Virus record (IMG/VR): IMGVR_UViG_3300022188_000006
Location: 1 to 64,000 of that record
Strand: one strand, 5' to 3'
DNA length: 64,000 nt
Source of the DNA: a virus
Positions within the stretch are counted from its first letter, which is position 1, and every line of letters begins with the position of its first letter. The notes beneath the pieces were generated by a model, which saw only the letters and a program-made list of their open reading frames with translations, had not been told where the DNA came from and made no database searches. Positions 25,848 to 46,152 of this stretch are shown here, in pieces. The position numbers were made by a program, and so were the translations under genes.

Positions 25848-26093
25848 TCACGCAGAAACCAACACGCCACCGCGCCTATGATACAGGAGTGACTTGGACT
25901 GCGCCCAGATGGCAACAATGTCCCCTGTGGTTCCGTCAACCCGGAATTCCACCCCGTCGTCGAAGGTCGTCTGGGCATCGTACTGGACCCCAAGAAACTT
26001 CAGGGCATTTGCCGCTTTGTCGGCTGCGTCACAAGGAAAATGCTTCGGATCCACGTTCTTCTCATCCCAGAACTGCGTATAGTCGTAAGCCAT
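25848..26093 (-). CDS. hypothetical protein
   Basis: Strong AAGGAGG RBS. Confidence 0.65.
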   Translation of the reverse strand: MAYDYTQFWDEKNVDPKHFPCDAADKAANALKFLGVQYDAQTTFDDGVEFRVDGTTGDIVAIWAQSKSLLYHRRGGVLVSA

Positions 26094-26123
26094 TATCCAC
26101 CTCCTTCCTTAGAACTTGCTTCC

Positions 26124-26774
26124 TTAGAACTTGATGATAAGCCCGGCCAGTCCCCAGGTGACTTCGTTTTCGTCGAAGTCCCACCCAGCGAAAAGACCGG
26201 TCTCGATCTCGAACACGCTCGTCCAGCACTTACTCACATGCACCCCCAAAAACTGCTCGGCACCTACAACACCGACACCGAGCCACCTAGCTTTTGGTAT
26301 ACGGATCTCACAGAGTTCTACTTCGAGCGCCGCACGCACCATATTCTGATCCAAGTCCCACAGCAGACCGCTGTGCATCTCCGGTATTTTGTAGGTTCTG
26401 ACAACCTCGGGTGCTACGATAAGATTTCCATCTTCGTCGTAGTCTGGATGGTCCTTGCTCGGTTTCCCAGGAGTAACCACGCCTCTGTCCCACGACCAGC
26501 GGAACCGACGCTCTGCCCGCCGCGGTTTCTTCGGGAGAGCTATCTTTATTGGCAACATGCCTGCCTCTTTGTGTCTGCTCTTTCGGTCAGCACTGACCGG
26601 ACGCGGCTTCACACTGTTCTTTCTGCTTTTGACCTGGCGCTGCCGATAGGCCAGCACCATTTCCCGCTCCTCGGGAGACAACAAGGCAAGTGACCGGTTG
26701 CCTACGGTGTTGCAGCCCACCAGAGCACAAAACGAGAGGACACAGACTAATCCTCGCCGACAATTCTGTCCCAT
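26124..26774 (-). CDS. putative lipoprotein with amphipathic beta-strand C-terminus
   Basis: Hydrophobic leader, LVG|C lipobox, C-terminal Phe. Confidence 0.6.
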   Translation of the reverse strand: MGQNCRRGLVCVLSFCALVGCNTVGNRSLALLSPEEREMVLAYRQRQVKSRKNSVKPRPVSADRKSRHKEAGMLPIKIALPKKPRRAERRFRWSWDRGVVTPGKPSKDHPDYDEDGNLIVAPEVVRTYKIPEMHSGLLWDLDQNMVRAALEVELCEIRIPKARWLGVGVVGAEQFLGVHVSKCWTSVFEIETGLFAGWDFDENEVTWGLAGLIIKF

Positions 26775-28258
26775 ATTTCTCCGGCCTCCTCGGCGGTCTC
26801 GTTGAAGAACCGCACCGACAGAGTGTTCACCAGCTTGTCTCGATCTACTTTTTTGACTTCTTCCCTTATGTGGTCAGGGACAGAGTCAAGATCAAACCCG
26901 CCCACAAAATCTGACCTGCGTTCACTAGGGCCAAAGGCAAGCCCATGATCTATGCTGTAGAGATGGCCATTGTTGTCTACCAGCACATTGCCTAGATGGC
27001 CGTCGGTATTGGCTATGAATGCGTGCAAGATCGCTATTCGCCAAGCATCATCAACAGCATCAGCCCCGAAATGTTCGGCTATCACGTCTTCGTCGATATA
27101 CCTCATACCAGGCGGTAGAGCCCTACTAAGTGTCTTTGAGTTCTCCACAAACCTTTGGCAGCTTGCAGTGTACTTAGCACTTGGATCGCGCAAATCGTCG
27201 CTGTTTACATATTCGAAAGCGTCTGCGCGGATGACCTTCTCCATAATTTCGGGATCCGGAAGATAGTCCTTGATGACAGTAGTCTCTGGTACGATACTCC
27301 ATCCGAACATCTTTGCTATCTCATAAGCCATTACCTCGCGCTCAGAAGGACTGTCACCCTCAAGTCCCTCTCTGAGCATCCCATCAAAGGCTGATAGCGA
27401 GTCAAACTTTTGTATTGCTTTTGCACCCTCTTTTGTCTTTCGCAGAAGTGTTACACTACCGACGCCTTGCTCGCTGAAAAGCTCCAACTTTCCTGCCGCA
27501 GCCATCCTTCTGAATACGCCACCGAACTTTTGTGCTTTTGGGTCTGCCTTTCCTCCCACGTGCTTGCGTTTATGTGGATCGACTAAATTTTCCAATTTCT
27601 CGGCTATGTCAAGAGCATACGTCATCCAAGCAGAGTCGAAGAACTCGCTTATCTGCCCCGCAGTATACGTAGCAGACGAGATACGCTCCTTGTCTGTCTT
27701 TGCGTGTTTAATGTCGCGAAGTCCACGATTTAGGCGAAGATAACTGGGTTCTATCTCTGGCTCTCCCGCTTCTGCTTCAACTTTCGGCGACATGTCACGT
27801 AAACGCTCCACAAGCGCAACAACTGCTTCTCCGATTTCTTTCATCTGTTCGGCTGCCTCAGCTGCTGATAGCTTTCCCCGTTCCGCCTGCTCAACAATTT
27901 CCTTGGTTTTGTCTTCTACCTGAAGCAGCGTATGCAGCTTTGGTACTGTTCTAAAACCAACCTCATGGCGCTGCCCAAGTTTTACCCACTTACCCCCTAC
28001 CAAGGCTTTTCGCGATTTGGGATTGTAGGGTAGCCACTCGCCTTTGAGCTTTATGTGCCACCCGCTAACCCACCTTCTTATAGTACCGTCTTTGTAACCG
28101 CGTCCGCTAGGATCTCTGTAAGGGTCAAACAGCGAAGGCGGTTTGTAGCCCTCAGGCTTTGGTTTCTGCACCGTCGGTACAGTCTGCTTCCAGACGCCCT
28201 GAAATTGCCGAAGATCCAGGATCAAGCCAGGCATAGTATCAGCTGCTTTCTTCTTCAT
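26747..28258 (-). CDS. HipA/PI3K-PI4K-like kinase A
   Basis: AIQK, REVMAY, IVPET, SCQRFV, NTDGHLGN, IDHG. Confidence 0.85.
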   Translation of the reverse strand: MKKKAADTMPGLILDLRQFQGVWKQTVPTVQKPKPEGYKPPSLFDPYRDPSGRGYKDGTIRRWVSGWHIKLKGEWLPYNPKSRKALVGGKWVKLGQRHEVGFRTVPKLHTLLQVEDKTKEIVEQAERGKLSAAEAAEQMKEIGEAVVALVERLRDMSPKVEAEAGEPEIEPSYLRLNRGLRDIKHAKTDKERISSATYTAGQISEFFDSAWMTYALDIAEKLENLVDPHKRKHVGGKADPKAQKFGGVFRRMAAAGKLELFSEQGVGSVTLLRKTKEGAKAIQKFDSLSAFDGMLREGLEGDSPSEREVMAYEIAKMFGWSIVPETTVIKDYLPDPEIMEKVIRADAFEYVNSDDLRDPSAKYTASCQRFVENSKTLSRALPPGMRYIDEDVIAEHFGADAVDDAWRIAILHAFIANTDGHLGNVLVDNNGHLYSIDHGLAFGPSERRSDFVGGFDLDSVPDHIREEVKKVDRDKLVNTLSVRFFNETAEEAGEIWDRIVGED

Positions 28259-29798
28259 CTTCTGGGTTTAGTATTCTTTCCAGGATTTCCTCCGCGCGAT
28301 CCGCAGTAGCATGCGCACCATACGCTTCGAGCGTAGCGCGGACCTCGCCGGTTTCTACGGCCTCTCGGAGTTCTTCCTTAATGTGGTCTGGCACTTCATC
28401 CAGGTCAAATCCATCAAATATAGAGCGCTCTTGTCCAGGTCCGAAAATCAGACCGTGGTCGATGCTATACATATGTCCGTCTTTATCGACTAGGACATTG
28501 CCCGCATGACCGTCGGTGTTGGCAACAATAGCGTGGAGAATAGCTATTCGCCAGGCATCATCGAGTGCTTTCTTGCCGAACATTCGCTCCACATCTGAAG
28601 GAAACAAGAACCGGCGCCAAGACAAGAGCCTCTTTTCGCTATCAGTGACTACATCTGCTAGCGCTTCCGAATTTTCGACAAATCGCTGGCAACTTCCGTA
28701 GAACTTTTCATCGGCACTGTTGATTTCATCCAAGGGAAGAATATACAGCGCTTCGCCTTCCGCTACCTTTTGCATCTCCTCTGGAGGCGGAAGATAGTCC
28801 TTCATAACTTCCGTCTCCGGAACAATCTTCCAACCGAATAGCTTTGCAACGTCATAAGCAGCAGCTTCTCGCAAGGAAGGAGTTTCACCTTCCAAAGACT
28901 GCCTAAAGGTTCCTTCTCTCACAGACAGTACATCGTACTTCTGTATTGCTTTTGCCCCTTCTTCAGTGGTTCGGAGAAAGGATCTGCTCGCAGCGCCTTG
29001 TTTATAGAACAGCTCGACTTTTCCCTTTGCCCCCATCTTGGCCAATATTCCTCCGGCCTTTAGGAGGTGCTCATCAGGAGCCCCAGCCACATTTTTGCGT
29101 AGACCAGGTGTTATTATCTCCTCAACCGTACTGGCTGCATTGACTATTGCATCGAATTCCTCGGACTCAACATAGGCCGAAATCGAGCGTGTCACGATGT
29201 CGAGTGAGCTATACTCAGGCTCCAGTTTATCCAAGTCCTTTTTAAGCTCGTCAAAAGGTTCAACGTCGTCAAGGTCTACTCGTAGTTCGCTGAAATCCTC
29301 CCATCCCCCGTAATCACCAAGCAGCTGACTCTTGGCAATCTCTGGTACCATGGGAGAAAAGGTCCAAAGCTCCTCGGTGAAGTGTACAAAAGCTTCGCCG
29401 ATTTCTTTGAGTTTGGCGGCTGCTTCGTGCTCATCTATCTTGTCGTTCTCGTAGTCCCTGAACACGTCCTTGGCTTCTTGTTCCGCTTCGTAAATCTGGT
29501 CCCATTCTGGAACTCTTCTCTGAGGAATACGGGCTTTCTCACCAACGGGAACCCACTTATTACCTACAAAAGCGGCCTCCGCCTTAGGATCGTAGGGGAA
29601 CCACTCGCCCTTCAGTTTGATATGGAGGCCGTCTTGCCAACGGCGTATCGTACCCTCGCGGTAGCCTTTACCTGTGGGGTCTCTATGCGGATCGAATCTA
29701 GAGGGCGGTTTGTAACCCTTTGGTATTGGGTTCCAGCCCGGAAAAAGCGTTCGCTGTTGCTGTTTCCACAGCAATCGGAAACGGAAAAGGTTCAGCAC
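28239..29798 (-). CDS. HipA/PI3K-PI4K-like kinase B
   Basis: AIQK, REAAAY, GSCQRFV, NTDGHAGN, IDHG. Confidence 0.85.
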   Translation of the reverse strand: MLNLFRFRLLWKQQQRTLFPGWNPIPKGYKPPSRFDPHRDPTGKGYREGTIRRWQDGLHIKLKGEWFPYDPKAEAAFVGNKWVPVGEKARIPQRRVPEWDQIYEAEQEAKDVFRDYENDKIDEHEAAAKLKEIGEAFVHFTEELWTFSPMVPEIAKSQLLGDYGGWEDFSELRVDLDDVEPFDELKKDLDKLEPEYSSLDIVTRSISAYVESEEFDAIVNAASTVEEIITPGLRKNVAGAPDEHLLKAGGILAKMGAKGKVELFYKQGAASRSFLRTTEEGAKAIQKYDVLSVREGTFRQSLEGETPSLREAAAYDVAKLFGWKIVPETEVMKDYLPPPEEMQKVAEGEALYILPLDEINSADEKFYGSCQRFVENSEALADVVTDSEKRLLSWRRFLFPSDVERMFGKKALDDAWRIAILHAIVANTDGHAGNVLVDKDGHMYSIDHGLIFGPGQERSIFDGFDLDEVPDHIKEELREAVETGEVRATLEAYGAHATADRAEEILERILNPEDEEESS

Positions 29799-29822
29799 GA
29801 CTTGCTTCCTGTTGGGATTGAA

Positions 29823-30182
29823 TCACTTATTGCCAGATTTTTGCTTCTTCCGTTGCTTGAGCCAATCTTCTTTCTTCATCTTCCACTTGCCAGCCTGCTT
29901 GGACACATCTTCGAGACTTCCCTTGCGCAAGATAGCGCGGCTGTAGGTCCCACTACGGAAGAGCAAACCAAGGAGGAACCGGGCTCCATCCTCAGGATAG
30001 AGGCGGTCGCCATAGTAATCGGGTACCCCGTCCTCTTTCCAGGAGTGCATCCAGAACTCGCTGGAATTTTTAGTGACGTAGATCTCACCATTCCTCAGTA
30101 TCACGCGGGCCTCGGTTACCCAGTCGCCGTGACTATAGGAAATCCAATCAACTACGATGTCGTCGTTCTGCACCTTTAACAT
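29823..30182 (-). CDS. small kinase-associated protein (putative immunity)
   Basis: W...GVPDYYG..L.PEDGARFLLGLLFR.GTY.R; paralog of 31703..32029. Confidence 0.7.
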   Translation of the reverse strand: MLKVQNDDIVVDWISYSHGDWVTEARVILRNGEIYVTKNSSEFWMHSWKEDGVPDYYGDRLYPEDGARFLLGLLFRSGTYSRAILRKGSLEDVSKQAGKWKMKKEDWLKQRKKQKSGNK

Positions 30183-30209
30183 TTTGTCTCTCCATCCAGT
30201 ACACAGTAC

Positions 30210-30238
30210 ATTCTATCGCACAGGCAACAGCGCCTCAA
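30210..30238 (-). promoter_or_regulatory. internal sigma70-like promoter TTGAGG-N17-TAGAAT
   Basis: Hexamers with 17-nt spacer in front of the 119-aa gene. Confidence 0.5.
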
Positions 30239-31728
30239 CCACCAGTCAAATCAATTAGTCGTTTCAGCCTCTTCTCTACCGCTTCCGCAGCGTCACCCAG
30301 TCCATAAGGCTCCAGAGCTTGGCGAATTTGTTCCGGCTTTACTTGCCTCAGCTCCCTCTTTACCTCGTCAGGCATTTCCTCCGCCTTGAAGTCTGAAAAG
30401 ATCGAAAGAAATTCTTTTTCCCCACCAAAAGACAGGCTGTTGTCGATGGCGTACAGGTGCCCACTCTTGTCGACGAGGATGTTTCCTGGATGTCCATCGG
30501 TATTACAAGTCAGGATGTGGAAAGCCGATATCCTCCAAGCATCCTGTTCAGCCGTCTCTCCGAACCGTTCCCTGATGTACTCCGGATCCACCTGCTGGAA
30601 CTTGATGTCGCTACAGGCGTCGGCGAGGGCGCTAGAATCCTCCACGAACCGCTGACAACTTGCCTGGTAAACAGCGTCCGGGTCGGCAACTTTGCTGTAC
30701 GAGATGAATTCTGCGCCTTCTTTGTTTATGACTTTTTTCAATGTGTCAGAGTCCGGAAGGTTATCGTGGATCACACCGGTTTCAGGAACGATTTTCCAAC
30801 CGAACAACTTGGCAAGTTCGTAGGCTGCGGCTTCCCTTTGTGATGGTGGAGCATCAGTCATCAGCGTACTACGCATCTGCCCGTTTTCTGCGGCCAGCAC
30901 GTCGAATTTTTGCACAGCCTTTGTACCGTCTTCAGTTGTACGAAGCAGACAAGTGCTGGCAATTCCCTGGGTACCCAGCATCTCCAGTTTAGCAGGTCTC
31001 GCTGCCTTGGCGAAAAAGCCACCTTTCTTGACAAGGTCGGGATCCTCTCGTCCACCAATCTTTTTCCGCTTTTCAGTCGTGAGCTTGCTCATACCCTCCG
31101 CGAGTTCCATGAACATGTCGAAATCCGGACTATTTAGGAACTCGCCAATGGCCTCCGCCACAGCTAGGAGACTTTCTGGATCGTCCGGATCCATGTTCTC
31201 ATAGGCAGCGCCTATGTCGTGGTAATCGTTCATCTCGAAGAACTGGTTAGTGCGTTTAAGCACAGGCGACATCTCTGCAACATCGTTGCACATGTCGATG
31301 AGACCGCTAATAATGTCCTTCAACCCATTCGCGGCCTCCTCTCCGTCTATTTCTCCGTTTTCAGCAGCATCAGCCAGCCGAAAAGCTTCCCGCTCAACAT
31401 CGAGCAATTGCTTATCAGTAAGAACGGATATCTCGCGTTGTTGGCGTGGCTGTTTCAGGGGAACCCACTTGTTGCCACGCAGGATCGCGTGGTGCTCCTC
31501 ATCGTAGGGAAACCATTCGCCCTTGATCTTTATGTGGAGCCCGTTCGCCCAACGACGTACCGTGCCCTCGCGATAACCTCTTCCCCCAGGTTCTCGGCTG
31601 GGGTCAAACAGCCCGGCCGGTTTGTACCCCTGCGGCGGTGCCTTCGGCATCCCGGACAGCCGTGGCTGATACTGCTTCCACACACCGCGGAAATCTCTGA
31701 GCTTAATCAGCCCTGTCAGTCCGTTCAT
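30235..31728 (-). CDS. HipA/PI3K-PI4K-like kinase C
   Basis: AVQK, REAAAY, SCQRFV, NTDGHPGN, IDNS. Confidence 0.85.
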   Translation of the reverse strand: MNGLTGLIKLRDFRGVWKQYQPRLSGMPKAPPQGYKPAGLFDPSREPGGRGYREGTVRRWANGLHIKIKGEWFPYDEEHHAILRGNKWVPLKQPRQQREISVLTDKQLLDVEREAFRLADAAENGEIDGEEAANGLKDIISGLIDMCNDVAEMSPVLKRTNQFFEMNDYHDIGAAYENMDPDDPESLLAVAEAIGEFLNSPDFDMFMELAEGMSKLTTEKRKKIGGREDPDLVKKGGFFAKAARPAKLEMLGTQGIASTCLLRTTEDGTKAVQKFDVLAAENGQMRSTLMTDAPPSQREAAAYELAKLFGWKIVPETGVIHDNLPDSDTLKKVINKEGAEFISYSKVADPDAVYQASCQRFVEDSSALADACSDIKFQQVDPEYIRERFGETAEQDAWRISAFHILTCNTDGHPGNILVDKSGHLYAIDNSLSFGGEKEFLSIFSDFKAEEMPDEVKRELRQVKPEQIRQALEPYGLGDAAEAVEKRLKRLIDLTGG

Positions 31729-32029
31729 CTGACCAGTTTCCAGCTATTTCTTCCAGTTCCCACAAAAATCCCTTCACAAGTGCGACTCTTCCATAGGTTC
31801 CACCGCGCATGAGCAAACCTAGGAGAAATCGTGGACCATCCGAAGGCCGCAAGGCGCTTCCATCATAATCAGAGATACCTTGCTTTTCCCATGCCTCTAG
31901 CTGTTCCATCGGCAGATCTTTCGTGGCATAGAGTTCCCCGTCGCGCACAATGAACCTGCCGCGACGCTTCCACTCGCCATCAACGCACTGTAGATAGTCT
32001 GCCACAATATCGTCAGGACGCAGCTTCAT
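31703..32029 (-). CDS. small kinase-associated protein (putative immunity)
   Basis: W..QGISDYDG..LRPSDGPRFLLGLLMRGGTYGR. Confidence 0.7.
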   Translation of the reverse strand: MKLRPDDIVADYLQCVDGEWKRRGRFIVRDGELYATKDLPMEQLEAWEKQGISDYDGSALRPSDGPRFLLGLLMRGGTYGRVALVKGFLWELEEIAGNWSDERTDRAD

Positions 32030-32301
32030 TTCGCCTTTTTCTTTCTGTCAACGACGACAATGCGTTCCTTGTCTCCGTCCCTGGCAACCAGTGCTTCGAG
32101 AAACGCTACCTCGTCGTCCATGATAACTTGTTTCCCGTCTTTGTTTGGGATTCCGTGTCTGCGCCATGAGCGCAGAATCGACCGATCCGACCAACCGGAG
32201 GCGGTAATCTTGTTGTCCTCATAGGTCAGACGCACCTTGGAGACCCATTCTCCTTCTTCGCGTACAAAGTAATAAAAAGCCAATCCATTCTCTATCTTCA
32301 C
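32026..32301 (-). CDS. small kinase-associated protein (divergent paralog)
   Basis: GEW...W..HGIPNKDG....DD..AFLEALVAR. Confidence 0.6.
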   Translation of the reverse strand: MKIENGLAFYYFVREEGEWVSKVRLTYEDNKITASGWSDRSILRSWRRHGIPNKDGKQVIMDDEVAFLEALVARDGDKERIVVVDRKKKAK

Positions 32302-32313
32302 AGATGTTTCCTT

Positions 32314-33777
32314 CTAACGCGACAGGATGAATACATCGCCTTTCTTCAGCCTTTCCAATCGCACGAGCGCTCCCCCAACTTCTTTCTCGCTAAAACCTCT
32401 CTCGTAGAGCGTACTTGCGAGCTTCTTCTCGTCCAGCCCGCGGACCTTGTCAGAAGTTTCCGGTGACAAAATCTTGCCGCGCATTTCGCTCACGACCATG
32501 GACCAGACGATGTCTTCTGCCGGAATGGTCGGGAAGCTCAAGCTGTTGTCGATCGCTTTCAGATTTTTATCCTTGTCCACCATAACATTGTTCGCGTGAC
32601 GGTCCATATTCCCTATGAGGTAGTCAAGGACGGCTATCTGCTCCATCTGCTTGTATTGTTTCTCCGAAAGACTCTCCGTGATAATAAGCGAACCATACTC
32701 CTCAGCCCATGTACGGCCATGTACAAAATCCTGTGAGGAGCCCTGGTACTTCTTGTCGGGGTCTATTCCCCGACTCTCAGGATTATTACTTGGTAGACTA
32801 AACGTCTTGAGAGCATCTATCACAATCCCTTCATCAGGCGGGTAATCATCAACCAATGTGGTTGCTGGAACTACGTCTAAGTTCATCAAGCTAGCCACCG
32901 CGTATGCGGCTTCTTCCCTGGCAGACAGTGGTATCTCCGGATCAATGTGATCTCTAATACGGTCCGGAAGTTGCGCCAGTATGTCTTGCTTGTAGATAGC
33001 CTTCTGCCCAGATGCCGTCTCGCGTAGGAGAGTAGCCCCCACAGAGCCCTGCTCCCCGTACATACTAACATCAGCCGTGTCTGCCAGGTGTCTGAATCCC
33101 GGAATGCGCTGCATCGCTTCCTTGTCAGCCGAACCCGGCTTGTGCCGTCTCTGCCTGAATTCTTCTCTGACTTTGGCAATGGTATCTGCCACAGCGAATA
33201 GCCTCGCGTAATCGCGTCGGCTTGTTCGCGCCTCCAGCCATTCGACGAACTTGGCAACCTCTTGCTTCCCACCAACCTCTGCTTCCTTGCGCAGTGGTTC
33301 GAGCAACTGCAGACCGTAACTTCCAAGAAATCGCTGGGCAAGGTCTTTGTCGATCTGTTTCAAGCGACTGTGAACCTTGGTCAGTTTATCAAGCAGACGA
33401 GATCCAATACCTAGGGCTCGCTTATGGCTGACCTTTCCGCGCTTCAAACCGGATACGACTTTTTTTAGCAATCTGTTGTAGCGCCGCATCTGCTCCGGAG
33501 CGATCAGACCAGGTTCAGGTTTGCCAGGAAGCGGAACCCATTTTCCTTCCCGTGTCTGGTACTTGCGCTCGCCGGGCCTGTACGGGTACCAACCGTCTTG
33601 CAGCTTGATATGCGGCCCGCTGCGCCACTGCCTGACAGTGAATAGACGAAATCCTTTTCCCGGCTTCGTCTTAGTGCCTGCGGGCTGCATAGGCGGGGTC
33701 ACAGTGGCAACGCCCTGCTTCGCCACCGACATGAATCGGCGCAAGTTCAAAAGGGAAATATTGGACAAGTCACTCAC
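32314..33777 (-). CDS. HipA/PI3K-PI4K-like kinase D
   Basis: AIYK, REEAAY, VVPAT, GSSQDFV, NMDRHANN, IDNS. Confidence 0.88.
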   Translation of the reverse strand: MSDLSNISLLNLRRFMSVAKQGVATVTPPMQPAGTKTKPGKGFRLFTVRQWRSGPHIKLQDGWYPYRPGERKYQTREGKWVPLPGKPEPGLIAPEQMRRYNRLLKKVVSGLKRGKVSHKRALGIGSRLLDKLTKVHSRLKQIDKDLAQRFLGSYGLQLLEPLRKEAEVGGKQEVAKFVEWLEARTSRRDYARLFAVADTIAKVREEFRQRRHKPGSADKEAMQRIPGFRHLADTADVSMYGEQGSVGATLLRETASGQKAIYKQDILAQLPDRIRDHIDPEIPLSAREEAAYAVASLMNLDVVPATTLVDDYPPDEGIVIDALKTFSLPSNNPESRGIDPDKKYQGSSQDFVHGRTWAEEYGSLIITESLSEKQYKQMEQIAVLDYLIGNMDRHANNVMVDKDKNLKAIDNSLSFPTIPAEDIVWSMVVSEMRGKILSPETSDKVRGLDEKKLASTLYERGFSEKEVGGALVRLERLKKGDVFILSR

Positions 33778-34441
33778 CGCTGATTACCTGTTGCAGCGCC
33801 TCGGCAATAACCTTTACCTCTGTCAGTAGTTCTTCGGAGGTGACGCTGTGTTTGTCCCGCGCATACTTCCTCCAGACCTGAAACAGCCTGAACAGGAGCT
33901 TACCAATGTTCCGGCAAGATTCCTGGGTCCATCCCTCTTTGCGCACGTTCTGGATAACCATGTTCGCGACGAAATCCACATGTTGCTTGAACACGGCGTC
34001 GTCGCGGTCTTGTCCATTGAGAGCCGCCGCGGTGATCGTCCTGACCATCTCCGTGGCTTCAATGACTTCCTCCCGCGTCGATATGGTACCTTGCACCAGT
34101 TTTACCAGCACATCAGCCTCCGTTGCGCTCAGCACATATCCACCGCCGAGATCGAAACTCAGCCAGGTCGGCCTGAATCTCCTAACAAGCATCTTGGTCA
34201 GCTTGTCTGCCACCTCCACGAGCCCCAGGCCGCTCGCCCAGGTCAGTGCGTCGTTGAACTCTATGCCCATGACCGACGCGCAGATCCCGACCACAATCCC
34301 GACCGGAAGCTTCAACACGAAGCCTTTCCAGGTCAAAGGCGCCCGGTTTTTACTCTTGGCCCACCCGAGGAGAGTAGCAGCGACCCCCAGAACGACACCA
34401 CGTCCAAGCGCCCAACCGAGATTGGATGCGGCACCGTCCAT
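33770..34441 (-). CDS. membrane protein, possible holin
   Basis: 2-3 N-terminal transmembrane segments and a soluble tail. Confidence 0.55.
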   Translation of the reverse strand: MDGAASNLGWALGRGVVLGVAATLLGWAKSKNRAPLTWKGFVLKLPVGIVVGICASVMGIEFNDALTWASGLGLVEVADKLTKMLVRRFRPTWLSFDLGGGYVLSATEADVLVKLVQGTISTREEVIEATEMVRTITAAALNGQDRDDAVFKQHVDFVANMVIQNVRKEGWTQESCRNIGKLLFRLFQVWRKYARDKHSVTSEELLTEVKVIAEALQQVISGE

Positions 34442-34450: not shown

Positions 34451-34828
34451 CTAGCTTGCTTGAGCGGGCGCTTCCTGAAGTGCCTCACGCACCAGCTTGG
34501 CCAGCGCCACAGGAGAAAAAGGCTTCGGAAGCACACCAGCGACATTGTTGGACGGCAACAGCTTCCGCGTGACCTCCTTCAGCAAGCCGGAAATGATGAT
34601 GGCCCGGGACATGATGCCTTCCTTGCGAAGTTCTCTCAGGAGCTCTATGCCATCGAGCTTGGGCATCATGAAGTCCAAGACAATAAGGTCAGGTTTTTCT
34701 TCCAGCGCATTTGACAGCGCCAGAAAAGCGTCTGTGAATACCTTGACCTCGGTGCCCGGATTAAGCTTGCTGATAACCTTTGCCGCGAGGTCCGCGTGCA
34801 CTTTGTTGTCATCCACGACATAAATCAT
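34451..34828 (-). CDS. stand-alone response-regulator receiver (CheY-like)
   Basis: VVDDN, LIVLDFMMPKLDG, IISG, PKPF. Confidence 0.93.
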   Translation of the reverse strand: MIYVVDDNKVHADLAAKVISKLNPGTEVKVFTDAFLALSNALEEKPDLIVLDFMMPKLDGIELLRELRKEGIMSRAIIISGLLKEVTRKLLPSNNVAGVLPKPFSPVALAKLVREALQEAPAQAS

Positions 34829-35738: not shown

Positions 35739-35960
35739 TCAGCTCTTCTTCACCACGGTATTGTCCGTGGTGTTGTAGGCGTAGTTGCTGCTCCCATCGT
35801 CGGCGATGAGGTCGTTCGGAATCTCGCCCGTCTGGCCTTGGCCAAGGGCCTGTCCTTCAGGCAAGTCAGCGCTGACCTGATCGGGCTCCGCGAAGAAGCC
35901 TGCGCCCTTCACGTCACTCGTGCTCGTGTCGTAGATCGGATACCAAAGTGCATCGGACAT
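35739..35960 (-). CDS. 73-aa fibre companion protein, copy 1
   Basis: Near-identical to the copies at 41953, 43798 and 45137; GGAG RBS. Confidence 0.85.
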   Translation of the reverse strand: MSDALWYPIYDTSTSDVKGAGFFAEPDQVSADLPEGQALGQGQTGEIPNDLIADDGSSNYAYNTTDNTVVKKS

Positions 35961-36035: not shown

Positions 36036-36797
36036 TTAGATGGCCATACTATATCCTTGAACACGGAGATTTGCTGAGTTGTATGTCGAATTATAGGTTG
36101 TTTGGTATTGAACCGTTGTATCACCGACTGATATTAAAAGACTTCCTAAGGCTCCGCTTCCAGTTTTCTGATCAACATCTTGATGATTGTTGTACGCTAT
36201 CATCCTAGAGGTATTAGGGCTAGAAGACTGTTGAAGAAAGAACCCCCCAGATACAGAACCGGTGCCTCCAGCAGAATCTGTATAGATAATAGCATGAAAT
36301 TCAGCCGCATAAGCTATAGGAGGAACATAGTTTGAAATAGTTACAGAAGTCCAGGAAGTAGTTGCTACACCATGCAGCAGTATAACGGCTGAAAATTGTG
36401 CTTTGTCACCAGATTGTCTAAAGTATCTAAAATTACTGCTCCCGTCGTTCCGCGCTGCTCCCACCAGCCTTTTCTTCGTATAACCAGAAGGCAGGACGGG
36501 ATTAGTCGGAGAAGCAGACAGAAGCCCGGCAGCAGTTTCTGTCGCCGGATTCCAGATCAGATAGATGTAGTACCAAGTGTTCGCGGCCTCGCTACCTGTA
36601 TCCAACCCATTTGCCCCGCTGTTCGTGATGTCAATGGTGACGTCGGAACTCAACGAAATCACGGCACCCCCGTCATCGGTACCGACCGTGCTTCCTGACT
36701 TGACGACAACCTGCGTCGCGGAGCTGCACTCAATGTGCAGGTTCTTCAGCAGACTCTTTATGATCCAGGCATCAACCTGACTAGGAGACAGTCTCAT
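36036..36797 (-). CDS. tail-fibre tip module
   Basis: Conserved DITNSGANGLDTGSEAANTWYY...LPSGYTKKRLVGA.RN domain and variable C-terminus. Confidence 0.8.
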   Translation of the reverse strand: MRLSPSQVDAWIIKSLLKNLHIECSSATQVVVKSGSTVGTDDGGAVISLSSDVTIDITNSGANGLDTGSEAANTWYYIYLIWNPATETAAGLLSASPTNPVLPSGYTKKRLVGAARNDGSSNFRYFRQSGDKAQFSAVILLHGVATTSWTSVTISNYVPPIAYAAEFHAIIYTDSAGGTGSVSGGFFLQQSSSPNTSRMIAYNNHQDVDQKTGSGALGSLLISVGDTTVQYQTTYNSTYNSANLRVQGYSMAI

Positions 36798-36816
36798 TTT
36801 GTTCCCCTTCGCTATC

Positions 36817-37572
36817 CTACAAATCCAGGATAAAACCTACGCAACTTATCAGCGAATTCCAGGTAGCTTGATTACCTGCAAACACAGAAAAAACACCGGA
36901 TTCGTCGGTCATCTGCTCATAATTAACCGATGTGTACTGAACCGCGGAAGAAAAGACATCTGCGTATTGGCGATACAATCCGTTGGAGCCGGCACCTGAC
37001 TTCGCAGAATACGCTGTTCTCATTGTTATGTCGGCACCAGACGTAGGTGCACCTGCATATTGGTACAACCTCAAGGCACGGCCGATCTTAACGGGGTAAA
37101 AAGAAGCTGTGGTAACCTGAGTCCAGGAAGTAGGAATAGAACCGTTGACGAGAGCTATGGGCGTCTCGAACTCTACCAAGCCTCCTATCTGCTTGAAGAA
37201 CAAAAAATCCCCGCCAGAGCTGTTCCGGACAGCACCTACAAGGCGTTTCTGCGTATATCCTGAGGGCATAGTTGGAGCACTGTCAGACAAGGAGAACAAT
37301 CCCGCAACCGTGCCGGTACTAGGATTCTTGATCAGCCAAATATAATACAAAGTCGCAGACGCTTCGCTGCCGGTATCCAGCCCGTTGGCCCCACTATTGG
37401 TTATTGAGATGATGATATCTGAGGCTAGAGAAATCACGGAAGAACCGTCGTCGCTGCCGACCGTACTTCCGGCTTTGATAGTTACCTGCGACACACTGCT
37501 GGTTTCTAGCCGAAGGTTGTGTACCAACCTTTTTGTCAGTGCAACTGCGATTTCATTTGGATACTGAATCAT
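36817..37572 (-). CDS. tail-fibre tip module
   Basis: Same conserved domain. Confidence 0.8.
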   Translation of the reverse strand: MIQYPNEIAVALTKRLVHNLRLETSSVSQVTIKAGSTVGSDDGSSVISLASDIIISITNSGANGLDTGSEASATLYYIWLIKNPSTGTVAGLFSLSDSAPTMPSGYTQKRLVGAVRNSSGGDFLFFKQIGGLVEFETPIALVNGSIPTSWTQVTTASFYPVKIGRALRLYQYAGAPTSGADITMRTAYSAKSGAGSNGLYRQYADVFSSAVQYTSVNYEQMTDESGVFSVFAGNQATWNSLISCVGFILDL

Positions 37573-37583
37573 CTTCGCCTTCC

Positions 37584-37958
37584 TTACAAGTCATTCCTGG
37601 CGTTCTTCCTAGTCGCAATGCGATCCTGCAGTGCCTGGGGCAGATCGCTCATGGCAATCACTCCCTTGGCGACAAGAACGTCAACCAGATCCTCGATCCC
37701 GCGGACCATAGGGATGTCAGTGCTGGTAAGAGTATCCAGTGCCAGGCGCCGGTCATTCTCCGCGGTGTCCAAAACCCACGCACCGGTAGCCTCGTTCCAG
37801 TCACATGGGACGTTGTGCTCCAAGGACTCCTGCGGAGGCGCAACCTCCGTGAAGTTGGAATCGGAAAAATCGTCTTCGACCTGGACACCCCAATCACCGA
37901 CCCTGTAGTAAACGTTATCTTCGGGGCGCCGTGTCTCTTTGTTCCAGACTGTTTTCAT
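37584..37958 (-). CDS. tail-fibre assembly-like protein
   Basis: FTEVAPP...WNEATGAWVLD; follows a tip module. Confidence 0.6.
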   Translation of the reverse strand: MKTVWNKETRRPEDNVYYRVGDWGVQVEDDFSDSNFTEVAPPQESLEHNVPCDWNEATGAWVLDTAENDRRLALDTLTSTDIPMVRGIEDLVDVLVAKGVIAMSDLPQALQDRIATRKNARNDL

Positions 37959-37982
37959 GACTGACCTCGCTCAGCTCTGCAG

Positions 37983-38732
37983 TTACAGTTTCATCCAGAT
38001 AATGTAGTTGTAAAGCCAGCAAGAAACCGACGACGTGATGTAAAAGGAAAACTGCCGATTTGCATTCAACATCGTCTCTCCTGGCAAGACAGGATCGGTG
38101 GCTTGCTCGTTGTGGCTTAAGGTAACATAGGAATCTCCGGCCCCCACGGATCCGCTTTTTACGTCCGCAACAGCATGGATGTTGACATCCTGACTAGACG
38201 GAGCGCTAGCACCGCTAAAGACTCCGATAGCGTATGCCTTATGAGGAACAACAGGAGATAAGCTATACCAGGTATTTGCGCTTGGAGTACCCGTATAGAT
38301 AGCAAATCCGTTACCGCTATACAGGACTATCTTGTTGCCTTGCTGAACGAAAGCCATGAAATTTCCACTTGAATTGTTGCGGACTGCACTCACAAGACGC
38401 TTTTTGGTGTACCCGGAAGGCATAGCCGGTGACGTGGATGAAGCAGAGAGCAGCCCATCAATTTGACCGTTGCTCTCGTTCCATATCAAGTAAACGTAGT
38501 ACCAAGTGCTGACGGCTTCGGAACCAGTGTCGAGTCCATTCACACCGCTAGTGGTAATGTCGACCGTGACATCTGATGAAAGCTCCATTACAACCGCGCC
38601 GTCGTCCGAACCAACAACCGCGCCCTGTCGAATTGTGACCTGCGTGGCGCTGTCACAGGACACGCGCAGGTCTCGCAGAACCGAGCGTGTCAGCCACGGA
38701 TTATTTTGTGCTGGGGTCAACTGCGTCATCAC
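37983..38732 (-). CDS. tail-fibre tip module
   Basis: Same conserved domain. Confidence 0.8.
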   Translation of the reverse strand: MMTQLTPAQNNPWLTRSVLRDLRVSCDSATQVTIRQGAVVGSDDGAVVMELSSDVTVDITTSGVNGLDTGSEAVSTWYYVYLIWNESNGQIDGLLSASSTSPAMPSGYTKKRLVSAVRNNSSGNFMAFVQQGNKIVLYSGNGFAIYTGTPSANTWYSLSPVVPHKAYAIGVFSGASAPSSQDVNIHAVADVKSGSVGAGDSYVTLSHNEQATDPVLPGETMLNANRQFSFYITSSVSCWLYNYIIWMKL

Positions 38733-38765
38733 TCTTCCTCATATCAGTCACACAAGACGGCCAAG

Positions 38766-40385
38766 TCAGGTCGTCCCTACGAAGAACCTATTCCAGTCTG
38801 TCAGCACGTCTGTCAAGCCACTGTTAGGATTCGCCTGGAAGATGTTCTGTTCTATAATCACAGGATTGTGCATGTACCCATCCAAATAATTGCTGGCAAG
38901 GCCATTAGTGCCGATATAGAGCTTACCTGTGTAATTCGCCCCGAGGCTCGCAGACATTTGCTGAAAAGCAACTTGCGTACCGTTCAGATAAAGGCCAATC
39001 GTATCGGTGCTCACCTTGTACACATACGCCACATGGTACCACGTGCCGGCGACCATGGACCCGCCAGCTATGTTTATTTTAGTTGTACCGCCAACAACAT
39101 TCCAGAAGGCAAGTTGGTCGCTGCTGTCTTTGTAGAACGTCCATCTGTTGCTGCTGTCCTGTACCTGGCTTATGAATATCTTGCCGGTGCCGATGCTGTT
39201 ACTGGTAAGGTTGACCCAGCAAAACATCGTCCGGTCTTTGCCGCGGCCTAGCATATCCCAATACGGCTGATCCAACACAGCGTTGGCGTACTCGCTGTTT
39301 GACGCATTGAAAGCGAGCGACTTTACGTTGAACTTCACGGTCCCAGCGTAGGTCGTCATCTTCTGTCCAACCACGTGGACAGATTTAGAAAGGTCATAGA
39401 TGTGACCGTAGTTGGCCCCGGGATCCCACAGGCGATAGTCGTCGCCGGAAAGCAACATCCGTAGACCCTGCAGTCTGACAAGTCCGCCCGTTTTGTTTAC
39501 GATGTCCCAGGTACCGCGTGCAGCATCGTAACGCAGACAGACCTGCGACGGCTCAGCAAGCTCGACCCCATAGCCCGGGCCAGAGAGCCACACGCGCGCA
39601 CCGGGATCGGACAACGCAACGGTGATCACCTGCGCCGATTCGTTCTGAACCCAGATCGTCAGACCGTCGTCGGCGGAAGTCGCAGCGGGCAGGGTCAAAG
39701 TCCTGCCAGCGGATGTAGCCCTCGTGTATCTGAACAGGTAACCGTCTTCATAGACAGTGGCAGAGTAATCCGCGGTCAAATCTTTCTGGTACGACCATCC
39801 CTGATAGTCGTTAGTCCCCCCGGTGTCCTTCACCACGTAGAAATCCAGAATGTCGCCGGACTGCGCACCAGAGTTTAGAGTGATTGTACGAGCGTCCGTC
39901 TTTGTATACTCGTTTTCGTCCAAAAGCTGGCCGTTCTTGAAAACGAGTATACCCCGGTTGGTGTCGTAGCTGAGCGTGGCCAGGTTAAAAACCGTCTGGC
40001 TTGCGGTTGCTACCTGTCGTTCAGGAGAAAGAAGCGCACTGGCAATTCCCGAACTGGTATTCACCTCGGTAACAATTTTCCACCCGACAGTGCTATCCAC
40101 ATAGACGAGGATGAACCCACTACCATCCAGGTCGATCACCATGTCCTGGGCCTGGCATTCGATATTCGAACCATTCCTAGCGACCGTAAGCGTGTAAGTC
40201 GTTGCGCGCCTGTTTGCGTCGACAACACCGACTGTGTCGCCTTCTGTCGGCGAGGAGGGAAGCGTGAGCGTAAGGTCAGCGGAAGAAACGAGCAGATATC
40301 CGTAGCCGCTAACAGCCTGAGTGTTCGTCGTAACCTTAACCCAGGCCAATCTGGACCTACCGTAGAGGTTGCTCAACAGGCTCAC
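38766..40385 (-). CDS. tail fibre with T4 gp9/10-like N-domain and C-terminal LamG/concanavalin-like domain
   Basis: TLTLPSSPTEGDTVGVVD..., WYHVAYV...LYLNG...LYIG...YLDGYM. Confidence 0.8.
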   Translation of the reverse strand: MSLLSNLYGRSRLAWVKVTTNTQAVSGYGYLLVSSADLTLTLPSSPTEGDTVGVVDANRRATTYTLTVARNGSNIECQAQDMVIDLDGSGFILVYVDSTVGWKIVTEVNTSSGIASALLSPERQVATASQTVFNLATLSYDTNRGILVFKNGQLLDENEYTKTDARTITLNSGAQSGDILDFYVVKDTGGTNDYQGWSYQKDLTADYSATVYEDGYLFRYTRATSAGRTLTLPAATSADDGLTIWVQNESAQVITVALSDPGARVWLSGPGYGVELAEPSQVCLRYDAARGTWDIVNKTGGLVRLQGLRMLLSGDDYRLWDPGANYGHIYDLSKSVHVVGQKMTTYAGTVKFNVKSLAFNASNSEYANAVLDQPYWDMLGRGKDRTMFCWVNLTSNSIGTGKIFISQVQDSSNRWTFYKDSSDQLAFWNVVGGTTKINIAGGSMVAGTWYHVAYVYKVSTDTIGLYLNGTQVAFQQMSASLGANYTGKLYIGTNGLASNYLDGYMHNPVIIEQNIFQANPNSGLTDVLTDWNRFFVGTT

Positions 40386-41899
40386 TGCATAACTCCCTGG
40401 AATTCGTGATTCCAATCAGACAAAGTATCGGTCTTTCCGCTATTTGGGTTCGCGCCATAGCAGTTGGCGTAGCTTATCAGCATGTCCTGCATGTACCCCT
40501 CATAGAAGTGAGCACCCGCGCCATTCTGCCCTATGAAGAGCTTTCCGGAGAAGTTCCAGGTGCTTGCGAGCAGCTGGTAAGCCACCTGCTGTCCGTTGAG
40601 ATACACACCGACGTTGCTACCGACTCGTGCGAAAGTTATGTGATACCAGCTGGAAGTTGACCCAATTGACCCGCCAGAAATTTGAAACTGATATGAACCG
40701 CCACCTTTCAGGTCAAGACAGACTGCATTGCTAGCATTCTTGTAGAATATCCAGTAGTTGTTGGAGTCCTGATAATGACAATAGAATACTTCTGTTGTAG
40801 ACAGTCTACTGGGCCGAATCCACAACGCCACTATTGCTATGCCACTCGTAGAGGCAAACACGTCCCAATCAGGGCTGTCCGAAATATCGACGTAAGCGCT
40901 ATTGCCAGCACCAGCCACATAGCTTCTCGGCGGTGCTATGTAGCTGCCACGGCTAATCTGCCACTGACTCTGCCCAACTGGCGCATGTCTCTCCGTGTCG
41001 TCTACACATTGTATCCAATTTACGCCTCCGCCCTTCCAAACGGTGACGTTATTTGAGCAGAGCAATCGCAGATCTTCCTGACGAACCAAGCCGCCACTCT
41101 TGTTGACCACGTCCCAAGTGGTTCTATTGTGATCATAACGAATACACACCAAAGCCGTCGGGAGAAGTTCAATCCCGCGACCACTTGGAGATGTCCACAC
41201 TCGACTCGAATCACCAGGAGTTACCGTAATCACGTGAGCCGACTCGTTCTGAACCCACACGACGTGACCGTCCTCGCCGCTGCCCACGGCCGGCAGCGTC
41301 AGGGTACGGTCGGCGCTCGTGCTCGACGTGTAGCGGTAGAGCTTGCCCAGATCGTTCGTCGTGAGCGCGGTGTCGGCGGTGACCTCGACCTCGGTCGCCC
41401 AGCCCTGGTATCCGCTGACATACTGGCCTGGGCCAGAGCCGGGGCCAGCAATCTCCGTCACCACGACCCACCCAACAGTCGCATTCACGTAGACCAGGGT
41501 AAAACCACTGCCGTCAGTGTCAATAACTAGGTCTGTAGCGGAACCTTCGATGTTGGAGCCGTTGCGCGCGACTGTCAGCGTGTAGGTCGTCGCTTTGCGG
41601 TCCGCATCCTTTACTCCCACCTTGTCCCCCACAGACGGACTCGCTGGCAGCGTCAAGGTGACATTGGAAGAAGCAACGATCAGGTATCCATTCCCTGTGA
41701 CAGCCGCGGTATTCGCGGTGATAACTTGCCACGACATGCCCCCGCCACCGCCACTGCCGGCAAGGGCCTGGTCTATGCCCTTGAGATGGGCGGATATCTT
41801 TGTAGTGCTCTCCGCCCCCGCCGGGGTCGGCGTATAGTTCGCCGGAGTAGCATAACCGGCTCTTATCTTCCTGCCTGTGAGGCGTCCTATCAGTCCCAC
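40382..41899 (-). CDS. tail fibre with LamG domain (paralog)
   Basis: Same architecture; WYHITF...VYLNG...LFIG. Confidence 0.8.
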   Translation of the reverse strand: MGLIGRLTGRKIRAGYATPANYTPTPAGAESTTKISAHLKGIDQALAGSGGGGGMSWQVITANTAAVTGNGYLIVASSNVTLTLPASPSVGDKVGVKDADRKATTYTLTVARNGSNIEGSATDLVIDTDGSGFTLVYVNATVGWVVVTEIAGPGSGPGQYVSGYQGWATEVEVTADTALTTNDLGKLYRYTSSTSADRTLTLPAVGSGEDGHVVWVQNESAHVITVTPGDSSRVWTSPSGRGIELLPTALVCIRYDHNRTTWDVVNKSGGLVRQEDLRLLCSNNVTVWKGGGVNWIQCVDDTERHAPVGQSQWQISRGSYIAPPRSYVAGAGNSAYVDISDSPDWDVFASTSGIAIVALWIRPSRLSTTEVFYCHYQDSNNYWIFYKNASNAVCLDLKGGGSYQFQISGGSIGSTSSWYHITFARVGSNVGVYLNGQQVAYQLLASTWNFSGKLFIGQNGAGAHFYEGYMQDMLISYANCYGANPNSGKTDTLSDWNHEFQGVMQ

Positions 41900-41952
41900 G
41901 TGCTGAATCCCTCGCAGATTGGATACAGTACTTAGTAGTTACCGCCTACGCT

Positions 41953-42174
41953 TTACGCTTTCTTCACGACAGTGTTATTCGCGGTGTTGTAGGTGTAGTT
42001 GCTGCTTCCATCATCAGCGATGAGGTCGTTCGGGATCTCGCCCGCTTGACCCTGGCCAAGCGCCTGTCCATCAGGCAGGTCAGCACTGACCTGATCGGGC
42101 TCAGCGAAAAAACCCGCGCCTTTCACGTCGTTCGTAGAAGTGTCGTAGATCGGATACCAAAGTGCATCGGACAT
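41953..42174 (-). CDS. 73-aa fibre companion protein, copy 2
   Basis: Near-identical repeat. Confidence 0.85.
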   Translation of the reverse strand: MSDALWYPIYDTSTNDVKGAGFFAEPDQVSADLPDGQALGQGQAGEIPNDLIADDGSSNYTYNTANNTVVKKA

Positions 42175-42188
42175 GAGAGGACTCCTTT

Positions 42189-42968
42189 TTATAGGTCTAT
42201 GGTGTAACCAGAAACTCTAACATGGCAATTCCTAGCTGGAGTAAATGTGTCACTAGAGTGTAGATACACTTGTAATGTTTGGTTCACGATAGGGACTAGG
42301 ACAGAAAGATATTTAGTAGAATGCCTATCGGAACCATCTGTGGCGTAATAGGTACTAGTATCTACCGATCCTATGCGCGTCATCCTTGATGTATCTCGAT
42401 CAGGTGAAGCTGCAAAGACACCCCAACTGGCCTCACTTCCGTTTGATGGATATTGATAGGTGTCATAATATACCGAAGCTGTCATAACTGGCACTAATGA
42501 AGATAAGCTATATGTTCTCCAAGAATTAGTTTGCCAGGTTGTGCTGAAAACTGTCTCTGATGCAGTGACTAAATTGCCTCGCTGGAGAAAATGCTTGAAG
42601 TTGCTACTCCCATCATTCCTCACAGCTCCCACCAGACGCTTCTTGTCATAACCGGAGGGCAAAGTAGGATTGCTTGAAGACGCAGAGAGCAAACCAGCCA
42701 CCGTCTCAGTGGAAGGATTCCAGATCATATAGATGTAGTACCAGGTATCCGAGGCTTCAGAGCCTTGGTCCAGACCATTGACACCAGAATTCGTGATGTC
42801 CACAGTGATGTCCGCACCTGCTTCCATCACGATACTGCCATCATCCGCGCCAACTGCCGAGCCCTGCTTGATGACAACCTGAGTGCTGTTGCTGCACTCG
42901 ATGTGCAAGTTGCGGATGATGTTCTTCGCTATCCAGGCGTTAACCTGATCTGCTGCTAACTGAGTCAT
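42189..42968 (-). CDS. tail-fibre tip module
   Basis: Same conserved domain. Confidence 0.8.
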   Translation of the reverse strand: MTQLAADQVNAWIAKNIIRNLHIECSNSTQVVIKQGSAVGADDGSIVMEAGADITVDITNSGVNGLDQGSEASDTWYYIYMIWNPSTETVAGLLSASSSNPTLPSGYDKKRLVGAVRNDGSSNFKHFLQRGNLVTASETVFSTTWQTNSWRTYSLSSLVPVMTASVYYDTYQYPSNGSEASWGVFAASPDRDTSRMTRIGSVDTSTYYATDGSDRHSTKYLSVLVPIVNQTLQVYLHSSDTFTPARNCHVRVSGYTIDL

Positions 42969-42995
42969 TGTGATTGCTCCTGTAACACAGGACAT

Positions 42996-43751
42996 TTAGA
43001 TGTCTAAGCTGAACCCGAGGACGAGCACGCCCAGAGTGATTGTATCTGAGTATTGCTTAGCAAATGTCAACACCCACGTGTTGGGTTCCACAACCAAATC
43101 TCTATGAATAGCTTGCGTTAACGCAAAAGTTGAATAGCGGTCCCCGTAGCTAAATCGTTGCCAAATTGAAGATAAATGCTTCACCCAAACTTGTTGATCG
43201 TAGTTTGAACCAGGAGTGAGATAAGACATCAACTGCAGTTCAGTTACAATCGGATAAGGGGCTGCTGACGCATAACTGATAGCAGTTCCACCATTAGAAA
43301 CCGTAGCCACGTCTGAAGTGAAAAGGGAAATCTCCGCACCGTATACTACTTTTTTCCCCAATTGGCGAAACTCGATAAAATTGCTACTGGAATTGTTTCT
43401 TACAGCGCCAATCAAACGCTTCTTGTCATAGCCAGAGGGCAGAGTAGGATTGGTCGAAGAGGCAGAGAAGAGTCCGGCTGCTGTGGAGGTCGTGCTGTTC
43501 CATATCAGCCAGATGTAGTACCACGTATTGGCCGCTTCACTCCCAGTATCCAGCCCGTTTGCACCGCTGTTCGTGATGTCTACAGTAATATCGGAACCAG
43601 CTGTAATGACGACAGAGCCGTCATCCGCGCCTACGGCGCTCCCCTGCTTAATAACCACCTGGGAAGCCGCGGAACACTCGACCCGCAGACTCTCTATGAC
43701 GCGCCGGACCAGGTACGCATTTACTTGGCTGGGCGGAATGGTCGTACCCAT
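42996..43751 (-). CDS. tail-fibre tip module
   Basis: Same conserved domain. Confidence 0.8.
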   Translation of the reverse strand: MGTTIPPSQVNAYLVRRVIESLRVECSAASQVVIKQGSAVGADDGSVVITAGSDITVDITNSGANGLDTGSEAANTWYYIWLIWNSTTSTAAGLFSASSTNPTLPSGYDKKRLIGAVRNNSSSNFIEFRQLGKKVVYGAEISLFTSDVATVSNGGTAISYASAAPYPIVTELQLMSYLTPGSNYDQQVWVKHLSSIWQRFSYGDRYSTFALTQAIHRDLVVEPNTWVLTFAKQYSDTITLGVLVLGFSLDI

Positions 43752-43797
43752 CTTTGCCTTCCTTCCTTTTGCATCGTGCGCAGCAGACTAACCTTTA

Positions 43798-44019: not shown

Positions 44020-44056
44020 TGCTGAAACTCCTTGTTAAGACATCAGAGTCTGGTTC

Positions 44057-44815: not shown

Positions 44816-44854
44816 TTTTGATCCTCACCGGATATTATTGGTTTGGCTGATCAC

Positions 44855-45358: not shown

Positions 45359-45385
45359 TGTTGGGACTCCTTCACTATAAAATTT

Positions 45386-46141: not shown

Positions 46142-46152
46142 GCGCCGCCCTC

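Follow-up and report, generated by a model that had tools for sequence, protein, structure and literature searches.

A tandem array of kinase-fold genes and small partner genes in a large phage genome

Why would a phage line up four related kinase genes with three related small genes? The question is raised by the first 64 kb of the 156,275-bp IMG/VR virus record IMGVR_UViG_3300022188_000006 (positions 1 to 64,000, hereafter the window), in which an array of four large proteins, K1 to K4, and three small ones, S5 to S7, is encoded between positions 26747 and 33777. In the large proteins we found a kinase fold that belongs to the PI3/4-kinase and HipA superfamily, and their catalytic residues are intact; conserved gene order and gene fusion indicate that the small genes are their true partners. 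Slightly more confident than doubtful, we read the array as a phage effector module in two parts, an atypical protein kinase and a small partner, that has been amplified in tandem in this lineage.

An operon of four kinases and three small proteins

The virus record has a G+C content of 54%, is classed by IMG/VR as linear, and has a CheckV completeness estimate of 89%. Nearly all genes of the window lie on the minus strand, including the seven open reading frames (ORFs) of the array, which form one operon (K1 to K4 are entries P0001 to P0004 in our analysis and S5 to S7 are P0005 to P0007). In the direction of transcription, K4 (487 amino acids, 32314..33777) comes first and is followed directly by S7 (91 amino acids, 32026..32301). 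Next comes S6 (108 amino acids, 31703..32029), the 3′ end of which overlaps the start of K3 (497 amino acids, 30235..31728) by 26 nucleotides. S5 (119 amino acids, 29823..30182) lies directly downstream of K3, and the array closes with K2 (519 amino acids, 28239..29798) and K1 (503 amino acids, 26747..28258), the start of K1 overlapping the end of K2 by 20 nucleotides. A first-pass annotation of this DNA had described kinases interleaved with small partner genes. The interleaving held up, but a strict one-to-one alternation did not: the order is K4-S7-S6-K3-S5-K2-K1, with S7 and S6 adjacent and neither K2 nor K1 having a small gene of its own.

The start of K4 is ambiguous. A GTG codon at 33777 retains the conserved leader LLNLRRFMSVAKQ and overlaps the stop codon of the upstream gene; the gene callers used on sister contigs begin K4 at an ATG codon at 33732, which gives 472 amino acids. 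The same array occurs at 99.9-100% identity in four further contigs assembled from four other samples, and it is therefore not an assembly artefact. Across 26000-34000, G+C is lower than on both sides (0.51-0.53 vs ∼0.55) and AT skew is more negative than in the surroundings (−0.11 to −0.13). Neither megablast of the array region against GenBank phages nor tblastn of K2 against 50,697 GenBank phage records returned a match.

K1 to K4 are clear paralogs, with pairwise BLASTP expectation values (E) of 5e-33 to 5e-144. K1, K2, and K3 are 39-47% identical to one another, and K4 is 27-30% identical to these three. All seven ORFs of the array lie where the first-pass annotation had placed them, the kinases have the lengths of 487-519 amino acids that it gave, and each of the kinase motifs it listed is present in our alignment. 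Its remark that the paralogs differ in a central helical region was also borne out: identity between paralogs is 12-32% in this region, the most divergent part of the proteins, vs 32-62% in the kinase lobes and the beta domain (52-62% among K1-K3). In a phylogenetic tree, K2 is the sister of K1 (support 100/99), K1-K3 form a monophyletic local expansion (100/100), and K4 is placed among the kinases of other phages. This topology suggests that the K4-S7 pair is older and that S6-K3-S5-K2-K1 arose by later amplification.

To which kinases are these proteins related? All four exceed the Pfam cut-off of 27.1 bits for PI3_PI4_kinase (PF00454), modestly so, with 27.8 bits for K1, 33.0 for K2, 29.0 for K3, and 40.0 for K4, and the match is limited to the profile segment that runs from the catalytic loop to the activation loop. 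The Pfam HipA_C profile (PF07804) gave 11.8-13.6 bits for K1, K2, and K4 against a cut-off of 30.5 and no reported match for K3. Among NCBIfam models, YjjJ matched K4 only (E 0.006), and the best match of the kinases, the SCO1664 family, was far under its cut-off. When a profile of 20 family sequences was compared to the sequences in the PDB, the type II phosphatidylinositol 4-kinase (PI4K) beta, PI4K2B, was found with an E of 1.4e-13 over a stretch that begins at the REaAAY motif and ends at the IDNG motif. The AlphaFold2 model of K3 (predicted local distance difference test, or pLDDT, 83.7) shows a disordered leader helix (residues 10-19), a five-stranded beta domain (57-90), a helical bundle (105-218), and a bilobal kinase (∼230-497) that superposes on a solved type II PI4K structure. 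Residues K274, E299, D411, N416, and D429 (K3 numbering), which correspond to the ATP-binding Lys, the helix-C Glu, the catalytic D..N pair, and the metal-binding Asp, are invariant in the 20 homologs. The first-pass annotation had called the proteins HipA/PI3K-like. The superfamily fold it named is correct, but HipA is not the closest relative: the closest solved fold is that of a type II PI4K, and HipA is more distant.

Type II PI4Ks are the best matches of the kinase by structure as well as by sequence, which would fit lipid or small-molecule kinases that modify envelope lipids, cell-wall precursors, or nucleotides. Like the type II PI4Ks alpha and beta (PDB 4pla, 4hnd, 4wtv, and 9hhm), the phage proteins carry the same catalytic-loop and activation-loop motifs, but identity to them is only ∼13-17%, the phage genes occur together with a small partner, and the other close folds are protein kinases. 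Indeed, the next-best structural matches (CtkA, Fam20C, HipT, HipA, and actin-fragmin kinase) all belong to that class. Bacteria generally lack phosphoinositides, and the partner logic and toxin-fusion contexts of the family parallel those of protein-kinase toxins. Hence we consider a lipid or small-molecule substrate very improbable.

The three small genes, of 91-119 amino acids, are related to one another, as the first-pass annotation had proposed. S5 and S6 are 43% identical (BLASTP E 3e-28), and alignments as well as BLASTP place S5 in the family; S7 is a divergent paralog that matches S5 and S6 with E of 2e-6 to 4e-7. The sequence motif quoted for the small proteins fits S5 and S6, but S7 follows it only partly. 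The AlphaFold2 model of S6 is confident (pLDDT 91) and predicts that the small partner is an alpha/beta domain of ∼90 amino acids in which a beta hairpin is followed by a third strand, two helices, and a closing strand and helix. A Foldseek search of the small protein against the PDB returned nothing at E up to 0.001, and a profile of the small family gave only noise against PDB sequences. We also saw no similarity by hhalign between the small family and either the Escherichia coli HipA N-domain or an 18-sequence, low-diversity HipA-N alignment. Three structure searches did give recurrent matches to HipS, the N-subdomain-1 of HipA, each weak alone (template modeling, or TM, scores of 0.47-0.48 for Couple_hipA clusters and 0.43-0.46 for HipA-family clusters). 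Since these weak matches recur and the partner kinase belongs to the HipA fold group, a HipS-like fold is the best reading and probably the right one, although sequence profiles do not confirm it. A profile search for further homologs of the small protein found only four proteins, at least two of which were already known beside kinases.

The evidence that joins the small proteins to the kinases comes from other phages. A homolog of the small protein directly follows the kinase in five of five independent related phage contigs with readable DNA (L001, L002, of which L003 is a duplicate, L004, L011, and L012), whose kinases are ∼20-29% identical to K3. Homology of the downstream gene was seen by alignment for L001, L002, and L004 and by hhalign for L011 (E 1.3e-6) and L012 (E 9.8e-11). 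On related contigs, the kinase pair has genes for an RNA ligase, a nucleotidase, and RNase HII as neighbors, along with many small genes, and it lies outside any head module. Two of three further contigs have an ORF of 81 or 84 amino acids directly after the kinase, judged by size and position, and in the third the next gene encodes 89 amino acids and follows a gap of ∼490 nucleotides. A locus search with the kinase alignment across viral and genome contig collections gave no confirmed relative.

Additionally, a domain of the small family is found at the C terminus of some kinases (P0082, hhalign E 3.2e-11; P0045, hhalign E 2.1e-5; P0031, BLASTP E 3e-17), and the fused kinases form one clade (support 99/99). 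P0045 is encoded by the same genome as the array, which has two additional kinase-domain genes elsewhere, at 96378-97208 and 107822-109705. It is the 627-amino-acid product of the second of these (L007:3822-5705, minus strand) and a kinase of the sister clade, and its partner domain is preceded by a Pro/Lys-rich linker and by the leader-like segment LEDFILKS. The relative L013 has a fused kinase in the same neighborhood as P0045, in which genes for ribonucleotide reductase and superoxide dismutase precede the kinase. Because adjacency is conserved in other phages and the two genes also occur fused, we take the small genes to be true partners of the kinases, in agreement with the first-pass annotation.

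Proposed control of the kinases by the small proteins

In the effector module, a kinase core resembling type II PI4K, Fam20, CtkA, and HipA is preceded by a flexible, conserved leader helix, a small beta domain, and a helical bundle that diverges fast. In the mechanism that we propose, the small protein would bind and control its kinase, most likely by holding it inactive in the phage-producing cell. The kinases would act on proteins of the host or of competing elements, phosphorylating these rather than lipids, and the divergent helical domains may direct the four paralogs to different targets. That the small proteins serve as immunity proteins or antitoxins is something we infer.

Several points weigh against this proposal. 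No direct evidence for binding or inhibition between kinase and small protein was obtained, and a complex prediction for K3 with S5, both supplied as alignments, scored 0.01 vs a mark of 0.32, a result that counts neither for nor against binding. Neither K1 nor K2 has its own small gene, two such genes come after K4, and a strict logic of one toxin and one antitoxin would hold only if the small proteins cross-protected. The equivalent domain of HipA is part of the active toxin, and the small partner could therefore equally be a positive subunit. The nearest solved fold is that of a lipid kinase, so that the substrates need not be proteins. Lastly, in K1-K3 a Gly replaces the Arg of the D-R-H catalytic-loop motif, whereas K4 retains DRH.

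Alternatively, the small protein might be an integral lid or a substrate-recognition subunit that the kinase needs for activity, in which case the array would encode two-subunit kinases that share subunits. The C-terminal fusion would place such a subunit in cis within one clade. K1 and K2 lack a small gene yet have conserved catalytic residues and belong to the same operon as S5 and S6, as shared subunits would allow, and in full-length HipA the N-subdomain-1 belongs to the active toxin (Gerdes, Baerentsen and Brodersen 2021, mBio, PMC8262856). Free-standing HipS, the closest structural analogue of the small protein, has nevertheless been shown experimentally to inhibit HipT (PMC8262856). The results fit activation and inhibition alike; we regard an obligatory subunit as rather unlikely and favor a small protein that restrains its kinase.

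Surroundings, wider family, and a possible route into the host

On the upstream side of the kinase array in the sense of transcription, 13 paralogs of tail-fibre or Mtd-like proteins occupy 36036-52674 on the minus strand, and all three that were scanned against Pfam gave a match to the 'Mtd second domain' just under the cut-off. Three near-identical genes of 73 amino acids are interleaved with them (35739-35960, 41953-42174, and 43798-44019). This tail-fibre gene array looks like a multivalent receptor-binding arsenal. From there to K4 we found a 131-amino-acid protein with a hydrophobic stretch that, by inspection of its sequence, resembles a membrane span; a coiled-coil protein with sub-threshold matches only; a stand-alone response-regulator receiver of 125 amino acids (34451..34828, minus strand; Pfam Response_reg, 65 bits vs a cut-off of 30.2); and an ORF of 223 amino acids (33770..34441, minus strand), the stop codon of which overlaps the K4 start. 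The first-pass annotation had put the array downstream of tail and lysis-like genes; the tail genes are there, but the lysis-like genes were not confirmed, the genes at this place being the four just listed. In the related 225-kb contig L002, too, a receiver gene lies close to the kinase. The 223-amino-acid ORF was considered as a member of the small family and showed no similarity to it.

Downstream of K1 lie an ORF of 216 amino acids, a hairpin, and a gene for RNase HII. The ORF (26124..26774, minus strand) overlaps the K1 end, probably closes the operon, and had no match in Pfam, PHROGs, PADLOC, or NCBIfam; it too was rejected as a small-family member (hhalign against the small-protein profile, not significant, probability 6.7%). 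The hairpin (25778-25747, minus strand) was identified by pattern match, consists of 14 pairs (8 G-C) with a T run after them, and would end the operon as a terminator. It was the sole outlier in a promoter and terminator scan whose counts were not above those of shuffled sequence. No helix-turn-helix (HTH) family was found among the flanking genes (the 223-amino-acid ORF, the receiver, and the 216-amino-acid ORF), and hence there is no adjacent HipB.

Further afield, the window encodes a 474-amino-acid transposase at 14065-15489 on the minus strand (phrog_506, E 1.5e-43), and a gene for an OrfB_IS605 or Cas12f-like TnpB protein adjoins the fused kinase in L013. The other kinase-domain gene outside the array (96378-97208, L006, minus strand) encodes a paralog of 276 amino acids and lies between the terminase and portal genes; the 108-amino-acid ORF that follows it (96065-96391) was rejected as a partner domain (hhalign against the small family, E 0.27).

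Could the module instead be a phage-carried toxin-antitoxin, abortive-infection, or superinfection-exclusion system directed against competing phages, like the candidate defense pair hipIN (PADLOC PDC-M03) or the 933W kinase? K4 has weak PADLOC matches to PDC-M66A (E 1.8e-6) and PDC-M03A (E 6.5e-6), the layout of a kinase with a HipS-like gene agrees with hipJS and hipIN, and an immunity role has been proposed for phage HipA-family kinases (Benler et al. 2021, PMC8008677). The PADLOC matches, however, span the catalytic loop only, and K1-K3 match nothing. Pfam scans of the kinases and their neighbors revealed no DNA-binding antitoxin or HIRAN domain, and four copies together with two further kinase genes per genome would be unusual for a defense module. 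No integrase or repressor turned up in the annotated parts of the genome, for which no dedicated search was made, and the only match to the PHROGs category 'integration and excision' is a transposase. A defense system thus appears quite improbable, and an effector module remains our preferred reading.

The occurrence of the kinase elsewhere also speaks to its use. An exhaustive profile search of 1.84 billion proteins found 2,409 representatives of the kinase family at E up to 1e-3, a handful of which are full-length relatives of ∼500 amino acids; among the family clusters looked up, none carried a kinase name. In giant proteins (P0013, P0019, P0023, P0028, P0040, and P0041), the kinase domain is found two to seven times in tandem, in some cases along with ADP-ribosyltransferase (ADPrib_exo_Tox, DRAT) or NUDIX domains. 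These giant multi-kinase proteins are the single-polypeptide counterpart of the gene array. In yet another setting, a 5177-amino-acid Actinophytocola protein has the polymorphic-toxin layout, with a WXG100-like N terminus, the kinase domain, and an EndoU nuclease at the C terminus. The family domain thus repeatedly occurs in tandem copies and in the company of toxins. Since a WXG100/EndoU toxin has the same domain, as do multi-kinase proteins some of which carry ADP-ribosyltransferase or NUDIX domains, a role of the family in biological conflict is likely by analogy, in line with the use in conflict suggested by the first-pass annotation.

If the kinases act in a host cell, how might they reach it? 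All four kinases and their relatives open with a leader, [LIVM]xLxxFxxx[hydrophobic]K[QSA], which forms a poorly modeled helix and has a Phe that is nearly invariant in the 20 sequences. In the fused kinases, a leader-like segment stands directly before the partner domain. A strict 12-residue version of the pattern matched six times in the proteome vs one match expected by shuffling, and four of the six are the kinase paralogs. One further match, IGLGGFGALLKS, is found in the Fe/Mn superoxide dismutase that the phage encodes (genome 111329-112078, L007:7329-8078, minus strand), at residue 15 within an N-terminal extension of ∼50 amino acids, and the dismutase of the relative L013 (L013:3145-3927) has the pattern LSLGKWSRILKQ in its own N-terminal extension. 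A looser pattern gave no convincing enrichment in the proteome once the kinase paralogs were counted as one family. The pattern is suggestive of a capsid-loading tag, with a count that is not significant alone.

Such a tag would fit kinases that are loaded into the capsid and injected, with the leader acting in capsid targeting and protease cleavage and the HipS-like partner protecting the producer cell. As a separate protein, the partner would then stay behind; as a fused domain, it would be cut off at a leader-like site. The four kinases, with helical targeting domains that differ, would be delivered to the next host in an active state along with the DNA and would switch off different host or defense proteins. 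Phages also carry polyvalent proteins. MuF polymorphic toxins are presented as capsid-delivered phage effectors with a downstream immunity gene (PMC12226406). The array has in common with such capsid-delivered effectors a conflict-type enzymatic domain in a phage that is followed by a small gene, and the conserved leader could act as a loading tag. In contrast to MuF toxins, K1-K4 have no MuF or portal fusion, and the related pairs lie outside the head module. Searches of K1-K4 with Pfam and PHROG profiles found no MuF, portal, or other head-internal carrier family. We consider delivery from the capsid unlikely.

Relation to Hip modules and other phage kinases

The first-pass annotation knew of no described phage system with this architecture, a statement that proved too strong. 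In hipJS and hipIN, the gene after the kinase encodes HipS or HipS-HIRAN; HipL unites a kinase core and a HipS-like domain in one protein; and in hipBST, the free-standing HipS is the antitoxin of HipT (PMC8262856). Phage HipA-family kinases have likewise been reported (PMC8008677). The array has in common with hipJS and hipIN a kinase core followed by a small gene, whose product is probably of HipS type here, and the fused relatives have in common with HipL a small C-terminal domain, probably HipS-like, on a kinase core. By analogy, the layout parallels the hipJS and HipL architectures, and the array would seem to be an amplified effector module made of kinase and regulator, not an entirely new type of system.

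The differences from the split Hip modules are nonetheless considerable. The kinases described here have an extra N-terminal region of ∼230 amino acids, made up of the leader, beta domain, and helical bundle, and a core that is nearer to type II PI4K than is the core of the Hip kinases. Unlike hipBST and HipS-HIRAN modules, the array has no HipB or HTH component and no HIRAN component, and the small protein gives recurrent weak structural matches to HipS or the HipA N-subdomain-1 with no sequence similarity detected. Hip modules, including HipBST of E. coli O127 and Legionella, are found in bacterial chromosomes, whereas the module described here is found in large phages; unlike Hip modules, the array is amplified to four kinases and three partners.

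Among phages, only two characterized protein kinases, T7 gp0.7 and the phage 933W kinase, were counted in a survey that also reported an uncharacterized HipA-family kinase in the 'Gratiaviridae' gut phages (Benler et al. 2021, PMC8008677). All of these, and the kinases of the array, are protein kinases of phages with a presumed action on the host or on competing phages. The kinases of the array differ from them in family or superfamily branch, and neither a partner gene nor a tandem array has been described for the Gratiaviridae, T7 gp0.7, or 933W kinases.

What is new here is the recurrence of a small gene after the kinase, the C-terminal fusion of the two, and the weak but recurrent structural matches to HipS. 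The kinase identity and the link between kinase and partner are well founded; the targets and the delivery route we infer. The kinase family is unstudied, and it joins type II PI4K-like folds, Hip-type split modules of kinase and regulator, and polymorphic or polyvalent toxins, which are usually treated apart. Taken together, four diverged kinases and three diverged partners make up a natural specificity matrix, and the array could reveal how HipS-type partners recognize their kinases and which host proteins are the targets of phage kinases.

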